DNA of 21,872 nucleotides from a virus (lineage: Duplodnaviria > Heunggongvirae > Uroviricota > Caudoviricetes), in the IMG/VR virus record IMGVR_UViG_2609459856_000011, positions 1 to 21,872 of that record. The stretch is one strand, 5' to 3'. The position numbers and the translations under genes are program-made. This document shows positions 6,073 to 15,132 of this stretch, piece after piece (the stretch's first letter is position 1; every line of letters begins with the position of its first letter). The notes under the pieces are model-generated. The model saw only the letters and a list, made by a program, of their open reading frames with translations. It was not told the DNA's origin and did not search any database.

Positions 6073-8898
6073 ATGACGGCAGAGCACATCAGGGACTGGC
6101 AACAACCGCGCCACGCAGTGGGGCGTGAAGGAACGGGGATCCCCGCTCCTGAATCCGCGCTTTCCTCCTGGCTGGATGCCTACCGGGCAGAGAACGAGCG
6201 CCGCAAGGAAATGGCTGATGCGGCGTTCTCCGCCACGCCGCTGGGCAACCTGATTAATAAAAGCCTGGACGCACAGGAAAAACAGGACAAAACCATCACA
6301 CTGGCAGGAGACGCCAGAAAACAGGCACGCGGCGCAGTGGATGAAGCCATGGCCTCGCTGCGCCTGCTGCCGTCCTATCTGCGCGATCCGCTTATTCGCC
6401 ACCTCTCCTTCCTGCGCAAAAAACAGGAAGCCGATCGCCGGAAAGGCAAAAAGAGCTGGCAGGCGGAACGCTATGCACGCGGAACCCTGCGCAAAATATT
6501 CGAACGTCTGGACCGCACCGATCACCGCTGGCTGACACCGGGTTATCGCTCCCTTGCCGGACGCGAACGCCTGGACGATTTGCTTTACCTGCCGCAGCTC
6601 AACAAACACCAGATACAGACGCTGGCCACCATGACGGCGGCGATGTTCAGCAGCACCTTCGAAAAACTCTGCGATGGCTTTGGCGCGACCGATGGCGAGC
6701 TGACCATGGATGTAACGCTGAAGGCGTATCAGATGCTGGCCCGCATGGCGTTACACCTGCACGCCATGCCTCCACATTATGACGCACTGACAACAGACAA
6801 AGACCGGAGGAACGAACCAGACACGGAGCTGCTGCCGGGCGCAATCCTTCGCCTGACCTGTGCGGAATGGTGGAAACGCAAACTGTGGCTGTTACGTTGC
6901 GAGTGGAGAGAAGAACAACTCCGCGCCGCCTGTCTGGTTTCCAGAAAAACATCACCCTATCTGAGCCAGGACGCGTTAAGCGAGTTTCGCGCACAGCGCG
7001 AGAAAACACGCAATTTTCTGAAAAGTTTCATGCTGGAAAACGAAGACGGGTTCACGATTGATCTCGAGACAGTGTATTACGCGGGAGTAAGTAACCCGGT
7101 TCACCGTAGGGCAGAAATGATGGCCACCATGAAGGGACTGGAACTTCTGGCCGAAGCCCGTGGCGACAAAGCGGTGTTTCTGACTGTCACCTGCCCGTCA
7201 AAATACCACGCAACAACGGAGAACGGTCATCCGAACCCCAAATGGAACGGGGCCACCATGCGCGACTCCAGCGATTACCTGGTTAACACGTTTTTTGCGG
7301 CGGTCCGCAAAAAACTGAACCGCGACGGCCTGCGCTGGTATGGCATCCGCACGGTGGAGCCTCACCATGACGGAACCGTGCACTGGCATATGATGGTCTT
7401 TGCCCATCCGGAAGAAATCGACACCATTGTGTCCCACACCCGCGATATTGCCATTCAGGAAGATCGTCACGAGCTGGGCGATGATATTACTCCGCGCTTT
7501 AAGGCGGAGTATGTAGACGGCTCAAAAGGCACGCCAACCAGCTACATCGCCACCTACATCGGAAAGAACCTGGACAGCCGCGCCGTGGATGGCATCGACC
7601 CGAAAACGGGCAAGCCACGCGTTGACCACGAAACAGGAAAATCAATGGCCGAGAGCGTGGAGCGCGCCATCGGCTGGGCGCGCCTTCACCGGGTCCGCCA
7701 GTTCCAGTTCTTTGGCATTCCCTCCCGTCAGGTGTGGCGTGAACTCCGCCGCCTTGCCAGCCAGATGGCACGCAACCCGGAGGGCCCGCAACGGCTGAAG
7801 GATGACGCAATGGATGCGGTTCTTGCTGCCGCTGATGCCGGGTGTTTTGCCACCTACATTGAAAAACAGGGTGGCGTACTTGTTCCGCGCAAGGACTACC
7901 TGATTCGCACAGCCTACGACCTCGCAGATGAGCTGAACGATTACGGCGAACAGAGTGTACAGATTTACGGGATCTGGTCGCCACTCATCGGGGAATCCTC
8001 CCGTGTGTGCACGCACCCGGATAACTGGAAGCTGGTAAGACGTAAACCGGAAGCGGAAGACAGCACCCACGAAAATGGTTTTGACCTTCAGGGCGGCCCT
8101 GCCGCCCCTTGGACTCGTGGCAATAACTGTCCCCGTGTACAGGAAACGGACAACAACGGGACAGAACAGCCGGAAGAACGGCCAGCACCGTGGCCGCAGC
8201 TCCCTGACGGCGTTGAAGTGAACGAATGGATGCGCTCACTGAAACGGCACGAACGCCGAGCGCTGATGCGTTCGCTGCGTGACAAACAGGCAAAAAACAG
8301 CAGTGATGAAACGCAGAACTGGACACAGAGCCGCAAACAGCCACGGCCTTTGCCTGATAACCACGAGTTACTCGCTAAAGAATGGCGGGAGGCTGCCGAA
8401 TCTCTCGGCCTGCATATCGGTGAACAGCAGATGCAGCACCTGTTACGGGGCGGCACTCTGTACGTTGACGGTAGCATCATTGCACCGCAGGGATTTGAAA
8501 TTGTACGCAAACCGGATACCCGCCCGGACAGCCGAATCACGCAGCTCTGGCAGCGCCTGAGCCGTAATCACGGCGTAAGCAGCACGGAGATCCGCCATAA
8601 CCCGGTCGCCAGCTATCTGGAGCAGCTCGGGGCATCAGACCCCGAAGCCGCCGCACGCCTAGCATCCACAATTCAGCAGGACCAGAACACCATGAAAACT
8701 CCCGTTACCGTGCTTTCTGACATGCTGCGCGCCATCCGTGACGCAGAGCACGCACAAAGAATCAATGAAACCACTGAACGCGCCCGCCGCAAGGCTACTT
8801 TGCTCCAAAAGAGAGGCAAACAGCACTTTAGTAATCAAAATGATGATGAGAAAAAACAATTACAAAGTTGGATATGCCTTTTCCATCATGAGGGATGA
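6073..8898 (+). CDS. A: Replication initiation endonuclease, P2 gpA-like (HUH rolling-circle initiator)
   Basis: 941-aa ORF. Contains an HUH motif (TVHWHMMVFAHPEE) and a downstream paired-tyrosine motif (SYIATYIGKNLD), as in P2 A-family nicking proteins. Position after the early ORFs and before the late genes fits P2 synteny. Start codon and the long C-terminal tail are uncertain. Confidence 0.85.
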   Translation: MTAEHIRDWQQPRHAVGREGTGIPAPESALSSWLDAYRAENERRKEMADAAFSATPLGNLINKSLDAQEKQDKTITLAGDARKQARGAVDEAMASLRLLPSYLRDPLIRHLSFLRKKQEADRRKGKKSWQAERYARGTLRKIFERLDRTDHRWLTPGYRSLAGRERLDDLLYLPQLNKHQIQTLATMTAAMFSSTFEKLCDGFGATDGELTMDVTLKAYQMLARMALHLHAMPPHYDALTTDKDRRNEPDTELLPGAILRLTCAEWWKRKLWLLRCEWREEQLRAACLVSRKTSPYLSQDALSEFRAQREKTRNFLKSFMLENEDGFTIDLETVYYAGVSNPVHRRAEMMATMKGLELLAEARGDKAVFLTVTCPSKYHATTENGHPNPKWNGATMRDSSDYLVNTFFAAVRKKLNRDGLRWYGIRTVEPHHDGTVHWHMMVFAHPEEIDTIVSHTRDIAIQEDRHELGDDITPRFKAEYVDGSKGTPTSYIATYIGKNLDSRAVDGIDPKTGKPRVDHETGKSMAESVERAIGWARLHRVRQFQFFGIPSRQVWRELRRLASQMARNPEGPQRLKDDAMDAVLAAADAGCFATYIEKQGGVLVPRKDYLIRTAYDLADELNDYGEQSVQIYGIWSPLIGESSRVCTHPDNWKLVRRKPEAEDSTHENGFDLQGGPAAPWTRGNNCPRVQETDNNGTEQPEERPAPWPQLPDGVEVNEWMRSLKRHERRALMRSLRDKQAKNSSDETQNWTQSRKQPRPLPDNHELLAKEWREAAESLGLHIGEQQMQHLLRGGTLYVDGSIIAPQGFEIVRKPDTRPDSRITQLWQRLSRNHGVSSTEIRHNPVASYLEQLGASDPEAAARLASTIQQDQNTMKTPVTVLSDMLRAIRDAEHAQRINETTERARRKATLLQKRGKQHFSNQNDDEKKQLQSWICLFHHEG

Positions 8899-8920
8899 GA
8901 TGTGAATCGCTAACCGAATA

Positions 8921-8995
8921 TTGTGTTGAATAGAATGCAATTGATATAATTCCCCTTAATTCATTGAAAACTGGATTTTTTGCATAACTATGCAA
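8921..8995 (+). promoter_or_regulatory. Putative promoter and palindromic operator upstream of the methyltransferase-ATPase cargo operon
   Basis: AT-rich intergenic region. TTGTGT (8921..8926), 18-bp spacer, perfect TATAAT (8945..8950). Downstream is an 8-2-8 perfect palindrome TTTGCATA-AC-TATGCAAA (8978..8995), preceded by TTGAAA at 8964..8969. Confidence 0.35.
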
Positions 8996-9083
8996 ATATC
9001 TATGGACGGCGACGATGTTTTTTATCGGGAAAACTCAAGTGCCATGTTAAGATTATGTTTATTTTTTACTGAGAAAATCGTGG

Positions 9084-9929
9084 ATGACAAAGCCTTCTCA
9101 TTTTAGAACCCCTCTTCGTTATCCGGGAGGTAAGGCAAAATTCTTGCCACATATTGAACAAATACTCCGCAACAATGATCTCATTGGTGGAAGTTATGCT
9201 GAACCTTATGCAGGTGGAGCCGGTGTAGCATTAGGTTTGCTCCTTAACGGTCTTGTTGAAAATATCTTCATAAATGATATTGATCCTGCCCTTTATTCTT
9301 TTTGGTTTGCAGTGGTTAATCATAACGATCTGTTATGTGAAATGATTGATGAAGTTCCTGTGACTATTGAAAATTGGCATACTCAAAAGGAGATACTCCT
9401 AAACAATGATAAATATAGTATGCTTGAAGTCGCATTATCTACTTTCTTTTTAAATAGAACAAACCGTTCAGGAATACTTAAGGCTGGCGTTATTGGAGGG
9501 AAAGAACAAAAAGGACCATGGAAGTTAGATGCAAGATTCAACAAAAAAGAGTTAATTAAAAGGATTGAACTAATTGGTGCATATAAGGAGAAAATTTACG
9601 TATCGAATTTTGATGCTGTAGATTTTCTGCTACACCAAAAAGCATTGCTACCCCAAAATAGTCTAATATATCTTGATCCACCTTATTATGTTAAAGGAGC
9701 AGAGTTATATAGAAATTTTTATAAACATGATGATCATGTAAAAATTGCTAATACACTACGGGAAATTCAACTACCTTGGGTTGTGTCTTATGACAATGTG
9801 CCTGAAATAAAAAGCATATATCATGAATTCAACATGACTGATTATACGCTTAATTATACTGCACAAGATAAGAAAAAAGGTCTAGAAATTATCATTTATA
9901 ATCATGGTATAAAAATCCCTGACATTTAA
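9084..9929 (+). CDS. DNA N6-adenine methyltransferase, D12 class (Dam-like)
   Basis: 281-aa ORF. N-terminal GGK motif (LRYPGGKAKFL), AdoMet-binding motif I (AEPYAGGAGVAL, the EPFxGxG type) and catalytic motif IV DPPY (IYLDPPYYV), in the order typical of Dam-family enzymes. Strongly AT-rich relative to the flanking phage genes. Confidence 0.85.
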   Translation: MTKPSHFRTPLRYPGGKAKFLPHIEQILRNNDLIGGSYAEPYAGGAGVALGLLLNGLVENIFINDIDPALYSFWFAVVNHNDLLCEMIDEVPVTIENWHTQKEILLNNDKYSMLEVALSTFFLNRTNRSGILKAGVIGGKEQKGPWKLDARFNKKELIKRIELIGAYKEKIYVSNFDAVDFLLHQKALLPQNSLIYLDPPYYVKGAELYRNFYKHDDHVKIANTLREIQLPWVVSYDNVPEIKSIYHEFNMTDYTLNYTAQDKKKGLEIIIYNHGIKIPDI

Positions 9930-9946
9930 ATTTAAGGATGATATAG

Positions 9947-11644
9947 ATGATTAAAGAAATTAGTTTTAAAAAATTTAAGAAACTGATAGATATTGACTTC
10001 TCATTCAATGAAGATATCAATATAATATCAGGAACCAATGGGACATGTAAGACAACATTGCTTCATTTAATTAGCAATGGTTTCCAAATGCCACCATCTC
10101 GATCACAAAATTATTCAAATAGTAATTGTGTTAGAGTTATAAAATCTATAAACAAAATAGCCAACCCCAAAATGGAAGCAATTGTTAGGGAATCAAAAAA
10201 TTACACCGATCCGGCAGAGGGAACAAAAGGTGTGTTATTTTCTATTAACTATTTGGATCATAGCACACTAGACTTCAGAAAGCACAACTCAAAAAATCCA
10301 GACGAAGCGCAACGGTATGCTATCAAACCAGTATACCCACGCGGAAAAGAAAAACAATCACTTCCAGCTAAACCAGTTTTATATCTTGGATTATCGCGAC
10401 TATTCCCGATTGGTGAAACTAAAGACGACGCCCTTACAAAAATTCCGTTAAACCTACCAGAAGAGTATGTTGGTTATATATCGAAAATATATAATGAACT
10501 TTTGGGCATTAATATTATAAATATAGAATCAAACAATATCGGAGATTTTAAAGCTGGCCCATTATTTGATACCGATAACCCAGCAATTGATTCTAATACC
10601 ATATCATCCGGGGAAGACAATATATTCATTATAATCAAGGCATTAGTTAGCCTTAGGTATTATTTTGAATCACTTATTCAATCCACTGATCAAAAAGAAA
10701 GCATTCTGTTAATAGATGAATTTGATGCCACTTTACATCCTTCTTTACAAATAAGGTTATTAGATAAAATTTATCAATACGCAAAAGATTATAAGATTCA
10801 AGTATTTTTCACAACGCACAGTCTAACATTGCTAGAATATGCTTTTCATAAAAAATACCATGTTGTCTATCTAATTAACAATATTACAAAGGCTCTGCTT
10901 TTGGATAATCCTGATATATTAAAAATAACAATGTATCTGAAAACACAAACAAAGGATGAGATATACACAAGGAACAAGATACCAGTTTTCACGGAAGATG
11001 AAGAAGCTCGCTTTTTATTTAATGAAATACTTGGTTATTGGATAAGCAAATATCCAAATTTTGCTATAGTTAGTAATTCATTTCACTTAATTGATTGTTT
11101 CATTGGTGCAGACAATTTAAAAACTATTTTTAATGATTCTCATCTTAAGGAAACCTCGTTAAAATCAATTTGTATTCTTGATGGAGATCACAGCCCTGAG
11201 GATCAGAGAGGAATTATATCACTGCCGGGTGAAAAAGCTCCAGAACAATTGATATTTGAGCATTGTGAGCACCTTTATAATACCGACGACTCTTCCTTCT
11301 GGGAAAATCAGGATATAATTAACAATGGTTTTTCGAAAGAGTTATACTTACTCAAGATACGTCCTCAATTACAATCAATTGAAACTGAAATTCAGAAAAG
11401 AAAAGACAACCATGAGTCTACATCCGGTTTAAGAAGAAAATTAAATAAGAAAATATTCAATCAGCATATTGAATTCTTTAGAATGATTACAAGAAACTGG
11501 TTAGACAAACCAGAAAATCAGAAATCTCTCCAGTATTTTTACAATGGATTACGATCCTTATTCTACCGGGTTACACCAACAAACGGCATTGACAGAAAAA
11601 TTTGGGATTTTGACTATAACAAAATCATTAAAGAGGATAAATAA
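9947..11644 (+). CDS. OLD-family-like ABC-type ATPase with a putative C-terminal TOPRIM nuclease domain
   Basis: 565-aa ORF 17 nt downstream of the methyltransferase. Walker A (SGTNGTCKTTLL), ABC-signature-like SSGEDN, Walker B plus D-loop (ILLIDEFDATLHPS), H-loop (FFTTHS). C-terminal half has an acidic strand motif (IPVFTEDEEARF) and a DxD motif (ICILDGDHSPED), which fit a TOPRIM fold. Same AT-rich composition as the methyltransferase. Confidence 0.7.
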   Translation: MIKEISFKKFKKLIDIDFSFNEDINIISGTNGTCKTTLLHLISNGFQMPPSRSQNYSNSNCVRVIKSINKIANPKMEAIVRESKNYTDPAEGTKGVLFSINYLDHSTLDFRKHNSKNPDEAQRYAIKPVYPRGKEKQSLPAKPVLYLGLSRLFPIGETKDDALTKIPLNLPEEYVGYISKIYNELLGINIINIESNNIGDFKAGPLFDTDNPAIDSNTISSGEDNIFIIIKALVSLRYYFESLIQSTDQKESILLIDEFDATLHPSLQIRLLDKIYQYAKDYKIQVFFTTHSLTLLEYAFHKKYHVVYLINNITKALLLDNPDILKITMYLKTQTKDEIYTRNKIPVFTEDEEARFLFNEILGYWISKYPNFAIVSNSFHLIDCFIGADNLKTIFNDSHLKETSLKSICILDGDHSPEDQRGIISLPGEKAPEQLIFEHCEHLYNTDDSSFWENQDIINNGFSKELYLLKIRPQLQSIETEIQKRKDNHESTSGLRRKLNKKIFNQHIEFFRMITRNWLDKPENQKSLQYFYNGLRSLFYRVTPTNGIDRKIWDFDYNKIIKEDK

Positions 11645-11720
11645 TGTATTCTAATAGAATATAAACATCAAAGCTATATTTTTTACACATATCAAGAGTA
11701 AAAAATAATTTAACTTTTAC

Positions 11721-11760
11721 ATAACGACCTCTTTTACAAATAAGTAGAAAAGGTCGTTAT
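11721..11760. terminator. Putative stem-loop or terminator downstream of the cargo operon
   Basis: Inverted repeat ataacgacctctttt / aaaaggtcgttat with a 12-nt loop, about 80 nt after the ATPase stop. No clean T-tract follows the stem, so terminator function is uncertain. Confidence 0.3.
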
Positions 11761-11883
11761 AACTCTCATCTCCATTGCATGTAATTTTCTTTGCATATTT
11801 TCACATAACAGTCAGGAATGTATTTATAAGCAACGTCGTATACATAGGCTCAATTTTTCTATAAATAAGCACTCCGTTCGGTT

Positions 11884-11910
11884 TGCACAATAGTGCACAA
11901 ATTTGCACAA
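11884..11910. repeat. Three perfect TGCACAA heptamers at exact 10-bp spacing, followed by a T7 run
   Basis: gttTGCACAAtagTGCACAAattTGCACAAttttttt; copies start at 11884, 11894 and 11904. Lies in the intergenic region between the cargo operon and the portal gene, where the cos site is expected. Confidence 0.6.
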
Positions 11911-12276
11911 TTTTTTTGAACGACTTTTTGCCCTTCCGGCCCGCATGGCGGCTGGATCCGTCAAGGATCCGTGCGTGCACAAAAAAACGCGTTTTTTCTG
12001 CGCGCAGGTGACGGGGGAACAGCCCGCGTTTCAGGGGGTAAATAGCATCCCCTGAATGATGTCGCAGCGACACAACAGAATGGCTGTCTTTCTCACGCTG
12101 AGCGTGAAGAATACGTGAGTGATTCTGATTTGATGGAGTGAAAGGTAAGGCCGTCAAAATCGCACTGAGGCGGCGAGAACATGCAGTCAGCGCAGTGGGA
12201 TTGCGTAAGAGTCTGACCGTCGATGATGGCAATAAGCAGGAAAGCGTCGTGAAATTATCTGACTGATACAGGAGCT

Positions 12277-12301
12277 GGAGAGTCGGGGCATAAATTTTTT
12301 A
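12277..12301. other. Perfect hairpin next to the portal gene 3' end, in the putative cos region
   Basis: GGGGCATAAA-ttt-TTTATGCCCC (10-bp arms), 34 nt from the portal stop, followed by a GC-rich segment ggcgaagcagcagacaagcgaagcgcgtcagg. Confidence 0.5.
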
Positions 12302-12334
12302 TGCCCCGGCGAAGCAGCAGACAAGCGAAGCGCG

Positions 12335-13381
12335 TCAGGATGTGGGCTGGGTATCTAACAGTGCGTAAGGGTTAAAGCGGATCACCTCTTCGCCAAGCCA
12401 GTCATTGATGTGCTTCATGGCCTCCATGACGGGCATCAGCTCGTTAATTGCGTAAACCCGCGCGGCCTTCTCCACATCACCAAACGCACTTTTTTCGCCC
12501 GGCATCGCCCCCATCAGTTGCGGCGGAACGCGGTGCGCAGCCAGCACATCATCACGGGATGCCGCCTTAACATTCATGAACTCATCTTTTGCGGTGATCT
12601 GCTGGAACGGCAAAATTTGCACCCCCTCTTTGCCCCCGTTGGGCGCATGAATGAGCACGTTTTTAAACGCACCACCACCACGTGCCCCCTGTAGCGTTTC
12701 TTTCAGGGAGTCCATGCTTTCGCGGTTTACCTGCGCTGCACCGATGTAGATGATGCACCCGGCGTGGGATCCGTTGTCATAGTACAGTTTTCTGAACATG
12801 TCCGCCGAATGAGAAAGGCTGGCCGAGAGTAATGCGCCAAGATATTCCGGCATGCCGTAGATTTCCTGGTTAATATCCGGATTCATCAGGTGGCACACTT
12901 TGCCAGGACGAAACTGGAACTCGTCCTTGCCATCCTGCACATACCACCATGATTCAAGATCGCTTCCGCGTCGCATGTATTTCGCCAGGGCGTGCCGTAA
13001 TTTAAGCGGTTCGCCGAGCATATTGCTTCGAAGCTCAAGGAATGCGTTACCGAACACAAACCAGTCCAGCGCCAGCGCCGAGAAATCCTGCCGGGAAAGC
13101 AGCGGGTGCGGGATGTAGCAACCGAGTAATACATTGCGCTTAAAGTAAAGCGCAGACTGATGCCAGGACGTTTGCCGGGCAGCTCTTGCCAGACCGTACC
13201 AGTCCACCGGGGTTTCATACCACCGCCCGTTATCAGCACAGTACATATTATCCAGCAGGTCATGCCAGGTCAGGCGATAAGGACCATCAAATGTGAATGC
13301 ACTGAGCGATGATTCTTTCCTGAGCGCATCAGCGAGATCAATGCGTGAACTCATGCGCACTTTTTTATTTTTTCTGCTCAT
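12335..13381 (-). CDS. Q: Portal (capsid portal) protein, P2 gpQ-like
   Basis: 348-aa ORF, leftward, sharing an ATGA overlap with the large terminase gene. Size and Q-P leftward / O-N-M-L rightward arrangement match P2. An alternative start exists at the tenth codon. Confidence 0.85.
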   Translation of the reverse strand: MSRKNKKVRMSSRIDLADALRKESSLSAFTFDGPYRLTWHDLLDNMYCADNGRWYETPVDWYGLARAARQTSWHQSALYFKRNVLLGCYIPHPLLSRQDFSALALDWFVFGNAFLELRSNMLGEPLKLRHALAKYMRRGSDLESWWYVQDGKDEFQFRPGKVCHLMNPDINQEIYGMPEYLGALLSASLSHSADMFRKLYYDNGSHAGCIIYIGAAQVNRESMDSLKETLQGARGGGAFKNVLIHAPNGGKEGVQILPFQQITAKDEFMNVKAASRDDVLAAHRVPPQLMGAMPGEKSAFGDVEKAARVYAINELMPVMEAMKHINDWLGEEVIRFNPYALLDTQPTS

Positions 13382-15132
13382 CAGAACTCCATAACCGTGA
13401 AACGCTCGTTTTCTCCTTCGCCGCCAATCGGTTCGTTAATGACAGCAAGCATGGTTGCCCACGCAAGGTCGCCGTGGCTGATCCCCCTCGCTCGGTCCGT
13501 TTCGTAAGTGATAAAGCCGCCCGGTGTTTTCACCTTACGCACGGCGTTAAAGGCCGCGACCAGCTCGCGTTCGGCGCGATCGTATTCCCACCGCCCGGCA
13601 CGCATTATTTGCAGCATTTTCAGTACCAGCGACCGTTTTGATGACAGCGTGAAGGTGTACGGAATAGCAGCAGGGAAAAACCGCTTCACTATCTGATAAA
13701 CAGCCTCCCCGTTCCCGCCCGTCACATCAATGCCGATGTGTTCCACGTTGTAGCGATACGTGAACTCTTCAATGACTCTGGCCTGTTCTTCAAACTCCAG
13801 CCCCTGAACGCGTCGCGTCTCCACCGTTCGAAAACGGCCACCAGGAACAGCCGGAGGAACCACCACGGACACAGCGCCGCTGTCGCCGTTGCCACTACTG
13901 CCGTTTGCGTCATACCCAATCCATACCGGACGATTCCCCATCGGGCGGGGAGCAAAAGGTTTCCAGTCTTTCCAGTCGTCGTATCCGTCAACACCGCAGC
14001 CAATCAGGATATTCAGGTTAAATGCCGATTCCCCTTCGCGGACAAACTCACACATATAGAGATTGAGGAACTCGTCTTCGGTGTTTTCATCACGAATTTC
14101 GTCGATATCGGTGTGTTTCCAGCCGTGATTAACCACATCTTCCAGCGTGACAATTTGCCGCCACGTCCGGTCAGGGCAGATAAGCCCGTTATGCAGCGTT
14201 TTCCAGTCCACAGAAAAACGCTGGCGTTTATGCGAGGCCTTTTTCTCGTTCCAGCGGTCGCCGTTCCAGTAGGCGTATGCCTCGTGCGTTTCGGTGGATG
14301 GCGTGGAGAAGTAGGTGCGCCGCAGTCCGCTGAGGGTTGCCATAGCGCCAGCCACCTTGCGCAGTTCAGCAAAGCGACTGACCCAGAAAAATTCATCAAA
14401 ATAAAAATTGCCCGTATAGGACTGTGCCGACGCAGCAGAAGTGCCGAGAAAATGCAGCTCTGCGCCGTTTGAGAGGATGATTTTATCGCCCCCTTTCAGC
14501 TCCACATCAACTTCAGCCGCGGCCTTCTGAATAATGCTTTTAAACTGGAACGCCTGACGACGCGACGCAGACAAAAAAATCTGGTTACGCTGGTAAGGTT
14601 GTGCCACATCGTCACGCAGCGCCATCAGCAGTGCTTCCTGTGCAAAATACCAGGTCGCCCCAATCTGTCGGGATTTCAGGATCATCCTGTTACGTATCCC
14701 GGCTTCCCTGCAAAGGGTCAGGGAGTCAAACCAGCCCCGCTGATGCCACTCCAGCCTGCTGATGATTTTTTCCCGCAGTGCGGCAATCTGTTCCGGCGTG
14801 AAATGATTTTTGAGTTTTTTCACCCGGCCTTTCTTTCCTGCGGCCATTACATCCGGCTGGCCATCATGCAGCTTTTTAAGCTGCCGGGTCAGCAGGTCTA
14901 TTTCCTTAAAGTCACCGCCTGTTTTATTCTGTTTTTCAGTAAGCTGGATGAGGCGCGCATCGATGGACTGCGTGACACGCTGCACGGGTGGCGTTTCATC
15001 CCACTGGTCGCGTTTTTTCCACGCATAAATCGTGTTCGGGTTTATTCCCATCAGACGTGATATTTCTGCGGGCGGATAACCCTGCCAGTAAAGTTGCCGC
15101 GCACGCTGGCGCACAAAAGCGTCCTGAATCAT
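13381..15132 (-). CDS. P: Terminase large (ATPase) subunit, P2 gpP-like
   Basis: 583-aa ORF divergent from the scaffold gene. N-terminal HTH-like segment (GYPPAEISRLMGINPNTIYAWKKR), then ATPase region (ILKSRQIGATWYFAQEALLMAL). Length close to P2 P (about 590 aa). Confidence 0.9.
   Translation of the reverse strand: MIQDAFVRQRARQLYWQGYPPAEISRLMGINPNTIYAWKKRDQWDETPPVQRVTQSIDARLIQLTEKQNKTGGDFKEIDLLTRQLKKLHDGQPDVMAAGKKGRVKKLKNHFTPEQIAALREKIISRLEWHQRGWFDSLTLCREAGIRNRMILKSRQIGATWYFAQEALLMALRDDVAQPYQRNQIFLSASRRQAFQFKSIIQKAAAEVDVELKGGDKIILSNGAELHFLGTSAASAQSYTGNFYFDEFFWVSRFAELRKVAGAMATLSGLRRTYFSTPSTETHEAYAYWNGDRWNEKKASHKRQRFSVDWKTLHNGLICPDRTWRQIVTLEDVVNHGWKHTDIDEIRDENTEDEFLNLYMCEFVREGESAFNLNILIGCGVDGYDDWKDWKPFAPRPMGNRPVWIGYDANGSSGNGDSGAVSVVVPPAVPGGRFRTVETRRVQGLEFEEQARVIEEFTYRYNVEHIGIDVTGGNGEAVYQIVKRFFPAAIPYTFTLSSKRSLVLKMLQIMRAGRWEYDRAERELVAAFNAVRKVKTPGGFITYETDRARGISHGDLAWATMLAVINEPIGGEGENERFTVMEF

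Follow-up and report, generated by a model that had tools for sequence, protein, structure and literature searches.

The hotspot between gene A and cos of P2 has been described by Rousset et al. and by Vassallo et al. (2022) and houses old, tin, PARIS and other systems. A validated two-gene system of Escherichia coli, PD-lambda-5, originates from a P2-like prophage of ECOR7 (RCQ13837.1 and RCQ13838.1); its components were given as "ParB/HEPN, methyltransferase," and an mrr-deleted host was used for cloning it (Vassallo et al., 2022). The need for an mrr-deleted host implies an active non-Dam methylase in vivo. Nucleases of the OLD family are divided into Class 1, which is solitary, and Class 2, which is accompanied by a UvrD/PcrA-like helicase (PMC6755086). 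The stretch analyzed here (the window; 21,872 nucleotides, positions 1 to 21,872 of IMG/VR record IMGVR_UViG_2609459856_000011) is a P2-like E. coli prophage of the P88 type (Peduoviridae, Xuanwuvirus backbone), and its A-to-cos hotspot carries an island encoding a DNA methyltransferase (M) next to an OLD-like ATPase-TOPRIM protein (T). Judged from the sequence, this module is a partner-swapped relative of PD-lambda-5; membership of the M family in the validated system is known, whereas no description of its pairing with the OLD-like T was found in the literature searched. The island and its two genes are as follows.

8899..11883, no strand assigned: AT-rich cargo island in the P2 gene A-to-cos hotspot, delimited by GC content and backbone similarity
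9084..9929, + strand: M, D12-class (alpha-group) DNA methyltransferase of the PD-Lambda-5_B family, 281 amino acids (aa)
9947..11644, + strand: T, OLD-like ABC ATPase-TOPRIM protein, 565 aa, predicted effector

The initial annotation of this DNA had recognized an AT-rich insert between gene A and cos, which is borne out by a GC fraction of 0.28–0.36 as against 0.55–0.60 in the flanks. The two co-oriented genes that it had reported, separated by 17 bp, are the only two long open reading frames (ORFs) within the island, and a Shine-Dalgarno-like stretch, GGATGA, lies ahead of the second ATG. All the motifs that it had quoted were found, in M as EPYAGGAG and DPPY and in T within FTEDEEAR (10985–11011) and LDGDHSP (11171–11197), and T also contains GTNGTCKT and ILLIDEFD (from 10700). 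Its proposal of an unusual defence module has to be narrowed, as the pairing is conserved but M already occurs in a validated system of the P2 hotspot, which makes the island a relative of a known system and not an unconnected one.

M is complete and belongs to the D12 class of methyltransferases and, within it, to the PD-Lambda-5_B family; its activity is predicted. It matched MethyltransfD12 of Pfam (PF02086, 6.7e-20), and the search of a defence catalogue (PADLOC) that had been recommended at the outset identified it as PD-Lambda-5_B (PDLC04018, 4.7e-122, residues 6–280), followed by the Type II methyltransferase model MTase_II (PDLC03358, 2.8e-108). The PADLOC oMTase models matched weakly (2.5e-28). 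The motifs DPPY and EPYAGGAG (of the EPxAGGG type) were invariant across 35 homologs. The protein had been called a Dam-like adenine methyltransferase, of which the D12 class holds; Dam itself was rejected since M scored 68.8 bits with the dam subfamily model TIGR00571, for which the cut-off is 114.85 bits. The nearest solved structure is M.CbeI (7m6b, 5.9e-18), an alpha-class N4-cytosine methyltransferase that likewise has DPPY, and hence the modified base is not settled, although adenine is the likely target of M. In view of the similarity to M.CbeI, the modified base as annotated (adenine) may be wrong for the M family.

T is composed of a complete ABC ATPase, a TOPRIM-like, putatively metal-binding domain with an invariant E...DxD constellation, and a helical domain. 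This layout agrees with the architecture of OLD nucleases, and a nuclease activity is predicted for T from its sequence and structural model. The domains are arranged as given below.

9947..10936, + strand: ABC ATPase head, residues 1–330, with Walker A GTNGTCKT at 10031–10054, signature ISSGED, Walker B ILLIDE at 10703–10720, and H-loop H291
10964..11236, + strand: TOPRIM-like domain, residues ∼340–430, with E350 at 10994–10996 and D412-G-D414 at 11180–11188
11237..11641, + strand: C-terminal all-helical domain, residues ∼431–565, specific to the family, with helices over 432–562 and a predicted local distance difference test score (pLDDT) of >90

An alignment of 63 T homologs (45–83% identity) showed that K35 (Walker A), S220 and G222 (signature), D257 and E258 (Walker B), and H291 (H-loop) are invariant, as are E350, D351, E353, and D412-G413-D414 in the C-terminal half. 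Only AAA_15, AAA_21, and SMC_N were matched in Pfam. The PADLOC 2.0.0 library holds no model dedicated to T; the best matches were HEC-04, PtuA, ATPase-Toprim_I-B, AriAB, AriA, and GajA (1e-14 to 1e-16), led by HEC-04 at 1.3e-16 over residues 249–444. The matches to the GajA hidden Markov models were partial (1e-12 to 1e-14), and the alignments with ATPase-Toprim_I-B and HEC-04 extended to residues 419–444. Some homologs of T carry the name "ATP-dependent nuclease" at NCBI. The matches to PDB profiles (PtuA, AriA, OLD, and Rad50) were confined to the ATPase parts; neither the Pfam nor the PDB profile search gave a TOPRIM match, and the hhalign alignment of T with P2 Old was limited to the Walker B region.

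The AlphaFold2 model of full-length T (pLDDT 81.8) had as top Foldseek matches the OLD effector of retron Eco8 (3e-11), GajA, and the Thermus scotoductus OLD 6p74, with 500–650 alignment columns. Residues 330–565 modeled alone (pLDDT 93.5, predicted template modeling score 0.90) formed a four-stranded alpha/beta unit followed by the helical domain, with E350 and D412-x-D414 at strand ends, and AriB and the TOPRIM protein of retron Ec67 were the nearest structural relatives of this C-terminal part. The TOPRIM domain taken by itself found no Foldseek match. The designation OLD-like ATPase/TOPRIM protein made earlier thus stands for the ATPase motifs, the architecture, and the full-length fold, while for the TOPRIM domain the scores are modest overall. 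T is termed "OLD-like" because it resembles OLD in architecture and fold while belonging to a separate sequence family. A phmmer search of 1.84 billion representatives with residues 330–565 retrieved 156 proteins at E ≤ 0.001, nearly all of the full-length matches being aligned at about residues 320–560 of proteins of 530–625 aa. As far as such similarity reaches, the C-terminal module of T is a small family of its own, with 156 representatives.

Conservation of the pairing and exchange of partners

Individual look-ups of T homologs showed a methyltransferase adjoining T in every case, i.e., in Desulfosporosinus (48% identity, T followed by M, in a prophage), a metagenomic contig, integrase islands of Salmonella and E. 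coli, and Pantoea. In the Desulfosporosinus locus (L001, 3002–3784 on the - strand and 8744–13668), the pair adjoins holin and tail-fibre genes, which makes the pair prophage cargo in Firmicutes too, and also a gene for a second, unrelated D12 methylase. A scan seeded with T, restricted to one genome per species, gave 80 loci encoding T relatives. Their hosts are Gamma- and Alphaproteobacteria, Neisseria, many Clostridia and Bacilli, Collinsella, Corynebacterium, Brachyspira, Treponema, Leptotrichia, Mucispirillum, Thermoguttaceae, and others, and span at least seven phyla, including Proteobacteria, Firmicutes, Actinobacteria, Spirochaetes, Fusobacteria, and Deferribacteres.

A methyltransferase of the same family was present in 70 of the 80 loci. 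It lay within 150 bp of T in 63, within 2.5 kb in 5 (4 of these with a PD-Lambda-5_A homolog in between), and ∼3.7 kb away in two Rhizobium relatives, and every one of the 10 loci without it was cut by a contig end. Conserved pairing had been named beforehand as a point on which the proposal should be tried, and M was found near T in 70 of 70 evaluable loci. The order of genes varied (T-M on the same strand in 58, M-T on the same strand in 8, and opposite strands in 4), and the settings comprised prophages, integrase islands, and chromosomal sites, also near conjugation genes. No fusion of M and T occurred among the 150 best representatives of the T C-terminal module. The M ORF was intact in each of 120 loci and T was frameshifted in at least one; such an asymmetry would be expected of a nuclease that does harm when the methylase is missing. 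One apparent natural knock-out of M beside an intact T (Salmonella, L006, with a methylase call of 195 aa) was discarded because its DNA is identical to that of L003 and only the start call differs. The M-T module is thus conserved across many bacterial phyla.

The partner of the methylase is not always T. Proteins preceding methyltransferases ∼60% identical to M (Pseudomonas aeruginosa and a metagenome) matched PD-Lambda-5_A at 1e-190 to 1e-254. The possibility that T itself is PD-Lambda-5_A was rejected, as no PD-Lambda-5_A model was among its best 25 PADLOC matches (to 2e-11), whereas true PD-Lambda-5_A proteins elsewhere score 1e-150 to 1e-254. A second scan, seeded with M, covered 80 loci in viral contigs. 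The partner was a T-type ATPase in 37 (with the alignment mostly running through the TOPRIM region) and a PD-Lambda-5_A-type protein in 33; both were present in 1 locus and neither in 9, of which 4 were cut by contig ends. The methylases of the two classes were interleaved, with a mean identity of 46% within and 44% between classes and a cross-class maximum of 80%. This interleaving, together with the alternative partners, indicates that the family is modular, with a single methylase combined with two unrelated effectors that mostly replace one another. In genomic terms, T depends on M, and M pairs with T or with PD-Lambda-5_A.

Both effectors may also share a locus. A PD-Lambda-5_A homolog (A in the gene orders that follow) was present in 18 of the 70 loci with T and M, in several orders, and about three quarters of the loci had M only. 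The three-gene operon A-M-T was found in Pantoea and Pluralibacter (L008/L009, 2557–6698; L018 and L057, 2545–6686), and the orders A-T-M, T-A-M, and T-M-A in Clostridia, Bacilli, Collinsella, and others. PD-lambda-5 has been interpreted as "RM+Abi" (Vassallo et al., 2022), and the three-gene locus may be the full form of such a system, of which the present island and PD-lambda-5 would each be a two-gene version. In a further locus (L015, 3421–9173), a classical PD-lambda-5 pair is followed, on the opposite strand, by genes for a different ATPase-Toprim-like protein of 519 aa (PADLOC ATPase-Toprim_I-B, 1.7e-18) and a 567-aa protein without a match to a PADLOC defence model.

Proposed mode of action and its alternatives

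We would give an even chance to the reading that the island is a two-gene anti-phage module resembling restriction–modification (R-M), in which T replaces PD-Lambda-5_A as the effector. M would methylate a short target in the chromosome of host and prophage, probably as N6-methyladenine and at a site other than GATC. T would engage DNA through binding or hydrolysis of ATP, and its TOPRIM site would cut DNA without the mark, thereby restricting incoming phages. T would be a non-homologous stand-in for PD-Lambda-5_A, and the DNA mark, not a dedicated protein interface, would connect both of them with M. A role in defence is favoured by the location in the P2 hotspot, where P88 carries different cargo. 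The R-M-like reading in particular is favoured because a further nuclease that T could guard is missing from most T loci, because methylases up to 80% identical serve unrelated partners, which is easier to reconcile with a DNA mark than with a protein interface, and because fusions of M and T were not seen. The intactness of M in all 120 loci, as compared with the broken T, and the mrr-deleted host needed for PD-lambda-5, implying that the methylase family is active, point in the same direction. A broader proposal, put forward more tentatively and somewhat short of an even chance, is that the M family forms a plug-in "self-mark" hub for either a ParB/HEPN protein or an OLD-like ATPase-TOPRIM protein and that T reads DNA methylation.

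Several observations weigh against an R-M-like mode of action. The nuclease activity of T, its substrate, and its sensitivity to methylation are predictions, and the structures that best match its C-terminal domain, AriB and the TOPRIM protein of retron Ec67, belong to abortive systems. PARIS has been described as abortive, and AriB cleaves tRNA, not DNA (PMC12839542). Characterized OLD-type ATPases are mostly sensors of infection and not readers of methylation. Only the version of PD-lambda-5 with PD-Lambda-5_A and PD-Lambda-5_B has been validated against phage, and its protection was strongest against the T-even phages, a group resistant to classical R-M (Vassallo et al., 2022). The presence of a PD-Lambda-5_A homolog in about a quarter of the T loci could mean that T is a back-up layer and not the primary restriction enzyme.

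The main rival is an abortive guard of the PrrC or PARIS kind, in which T would be a suicide nuclease, acting on DNA or tRNA, that is kept latent by M or by ongoing methylation. A phage that disables methylation or restriction, for instance by a DNA mimic such as Ocr, an enzyme degrading S-adenosylmethionine, or a methylase inhibitor, would release it and the cell would die before phage release. Besides the kinship of the C-terminal domain, it is in keeping with the resemblance of the T ATPase to the infection-sensing ATPases of AriA, PtuA, GajA, and retron effectors, with the occurrence of three-gene loci, and with the "RM+Abi" interpretation and the T-even preference of PD-lambda-5. The literature also views OLD-ABC and TOPRIM proteins beside modification systems as back-up suicidal effectors, with PrrC beside a Type I R-M system as the archetype. 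However, about three quarters of the T loci have M only and thus no separate restriction enzyme to guard, the exchange of T and PD-Lambda-5_A between methylases of up to 80% identity speaks against a partner-specific interface, and PARIS, Gabija, Septu, and HEC-04 all work without a methylase. On balance, such a guard appears less likely than the R-M-like reading.

In view of the linkage and of the location in the hotspot, two other readings are unlikely. M and T might be independent neighbours, with M as an orphan methylase that shields the phage genome against host restriction or acts in the regulation of phage genes, and with T as a self-sufficient single-protein defence; single-protein ATPase-TOPRIM defences are known (P2 Old and HEC-04), and orphan D12 methylases, whose PADLOC models M matches weakly, are common in phages. 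The unbroken adjacency across phyla and settings, kept despite shuffled gene order, and the rarity of an M without either partner make this improbable. The pair might also have no part in defence and form an addiction or stabilization cassette of a mobile element or serve an epigenetic or repair function, as R-M-like pairs may act as selfish addiction modules and the pair occurs in integrase islands and near conjugation genes. That seems the slimmest of prospects for an island in a defence hotspot, whose M is homologous to a validated defence component and whose T has defence ATPases as its only relatives; moreover, addiction and defence are compatible.

Borders of the island and other features of the window

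The GC fraction is 0.57–0.60 within gene A, 0.28–0.36 over 8800–11999, and 0.49–0.55 beyond. The island is bounded on the left by the gene A stop (8898). The right border was read at query position 237–240 of the stretch 11645–12334, which places the return of P88-like backbone similarity at ∼11881–11884 (∼11883); the end at 11800 given in the initial annotation has therefore to be moved by ∼80 bp. P88 has different, unrelated cargo genes at this position, as expected for the P2 A-to-cos hotspot. The features in and around the island, other than the two genes, are listed below.

6073–8898: gene A (replication endonuclease), Pfam Phage_GPA 8.6e-132
8945..8950, + strand: candidate -10 hexamer TATAAT, read from the sequence, with TTGTGT 18 nt upstream
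11721..11760, no strand assigned: inverted repeat from a repeat search, 17-nt arms, 88% complementary, 6-nt loop, 77 nt past the stop of the ATPase gene
11884..12334, no strand assigned: cos-proximal phage backbone between island and portal gene, not cargo, 94–96% identical to P88, 520873, 500465-2, and other Peduoviridae
12335–13381, - strand: portal gene, with the terminase gene behind it and then the capsid genes

The TATAAT hexamer might serve as the promoter of a two-gene operon; a consensus scan of the island for promoters and terminators, in which counts did not exceed those of shuffled sequences, did not include it among its calls. The inverted repeat, which lacks a T run, possibly marks the end of the operon. 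Rfam and tRNA scans found no RNA elements inside the island. Just beyond the stop of the portal gene, a perfect 11-bp hairpin (12284–12308) flanked by T/A runs is probably a bidirectional terminator. A TTG-start ORF of 143 aa (11801–12232, - strand) straddles the edge of the island and the cos-proximal backbone; it is probably spurious, as just two tiny hypothetical genes are annotated in the P88 counterpart.

A matching gene arrangement is annotated in a P2-like prophage of E. coli FDAARGOS_1285, beside btuC, where the RefSeq names are "DNA adenine methylase" for M and "AAA family ATPase" for T. The accessions of the two proteins are WP_001581117.1 and WP_001581118.1. The island was found in 15 of 5426 complete E. 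coli genomes at ≥97.9% identity, and the exact T sequence is recorded on 759 contigs.

Elsewhere in the window, gathering-level Rfam matches on the + strand to isrK (5144–5218, 64 bits) and C4 antisense RNA (5254–5341, 83 bits) fall within or next to an ORF of the Ash family (5087–5704), and the segment 5144–5341 looks like an antisense immunity element of the P1/P7 type in the early region of a P2-like phage. A strong Rfam match (150 bits) to the Hfq-binding small RNA isrC was located at 20766–20888 (+ strand) among tail and morphogenesis genes. Past the integrase, at the prophage end, two small ORFs of 184 and 166 aa occupy 193–1231 (- strand). PADLOC gave no convincing defence-model match for either; the former had weak coiled-coil-type matches only (5e-05 and above) and the latter a weak Zn-ribbon hint. 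These two ORFs may be further cargo.

Significance and comparison with known systems

In the literature searched, no explicit description of a methylase paired with an OLD or ATPase-TOPRIM protein was found, although an earlier computational mention is possible. As PADLOC 2.0.0 has no T-specific model and its best matches are generic, the pair of T and M is probably unrecognized as a system. The choice of targets by OLD-family nucleases has been in question since the description of P2 old, and the known members respond to cues of infection and not to DNA marks. A clade with a methyltransferase as its sole constant partner offers a handle on whether methylation governs cleavage. Should T prove to read methylation, it would be the first OLD-family nuclease shown to do so, and it would define a new type of ATP-dependent restriction enzyme and a further OLD class characterized by a methylase partner. 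PD-lambda-5 is likewise recast as one arm of a modular family, with one methylase and two interchangeable effectors, sometimes both, and the family of M, T, and PD-Lambda-5_A provides a natural system for studying combined layers of restriction and abortive defence.

Comparison with multi-gene systems that contain related ATPases showed clear differences. Gabija consists of GajA and the UvrD-like helicase GajB, whereas the island has no helicase ORF. PARIS, which is triggered by Ocr, is formed by two proteins, the ATPase AriA and the DUF4435 TOPRIM protein AriB, encoded by two genes or as a fusion and without a methylase, unlike the M-T pair. In PrrC-EcoprrI, PrrC carries a HEPN anticodon nuclease and belongs to a complete Type I hsd locus, while T has a solitary Type II-like methylase as its one constant partner. 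The likeness to Type II R-M systems lies in a solitary D12 methyltransferase tightly linked to a predicted nuclease gene, in a methylase that is always intact, and in the exchange of non-homologous nucleases; M carries the catalytic motif IV (DPPY) expected of such a methyltransferase, its activity being a prediction. To our knowledge, ABC ATPase-TOPRIM proteins are not represented among the characterized Type II endonucleases, and a dependence of T on ATP would set it apart from orthodox Type II enzymes.

HEC-04 unites an ABC ATPase and a TOPRIM domain in a single chain, and mutations of its Walker A or of its E/D/D metal site abolish defence (Payne et al., 2024, preprint). T has the same single-chain layout, and the kinship is distant and partial; HEC-04 acts alone, embedded in Hachiman loci without a methylase partner, whereas T is accompanied by M. 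The OLD family (P2 Old and Thermus OLD in Class 1, Burkholderia and Xanthomonas OLD and GajA in Class 2, and the retron Eco8 effector) shares with T the N-terminal ABC ATPase, complete in T with Walker A, signature, Walker B, and H-loop, as well as a C-terminal helical domain; the acidic residues of the TOPRIM-like domain of T resemble the metal ligands of OLD. Its members are the full-length fold matches of T, and P2 Old occupies the same phage hotspot. The sequence match is, however, limited to the ATPase motifs, and the acidic motif reads E-D-x-E in T and E-G-x-x-E in OLD. OLD proteins have no constant neighbour, a UvrD-like helicase, or a reverse transcriptase beside them, while the neighbour of T is a D12 methyltransferase at all evaluable loci.

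With PD-lambda-5, the island has in common the methyltransferase family, the organization as a two-gene operon, carriage by a P2-like prophage, and an effector gene beside the methylase. PADLOC holds models for both components and only PD-Lambda-5_B was matched in the island, which contains no PD-Lambda-5_A (ParB/HEPN) neighbour; a calling rule that needs both would presumably not report this locus as PD-lambda-5. The effector of PD-lambda-5 is a ParB/HEPN protein of ∼480–500 aa, and its place is taken here by an unrelated ABC ATPase-TOPRIM protein of 565 aa.

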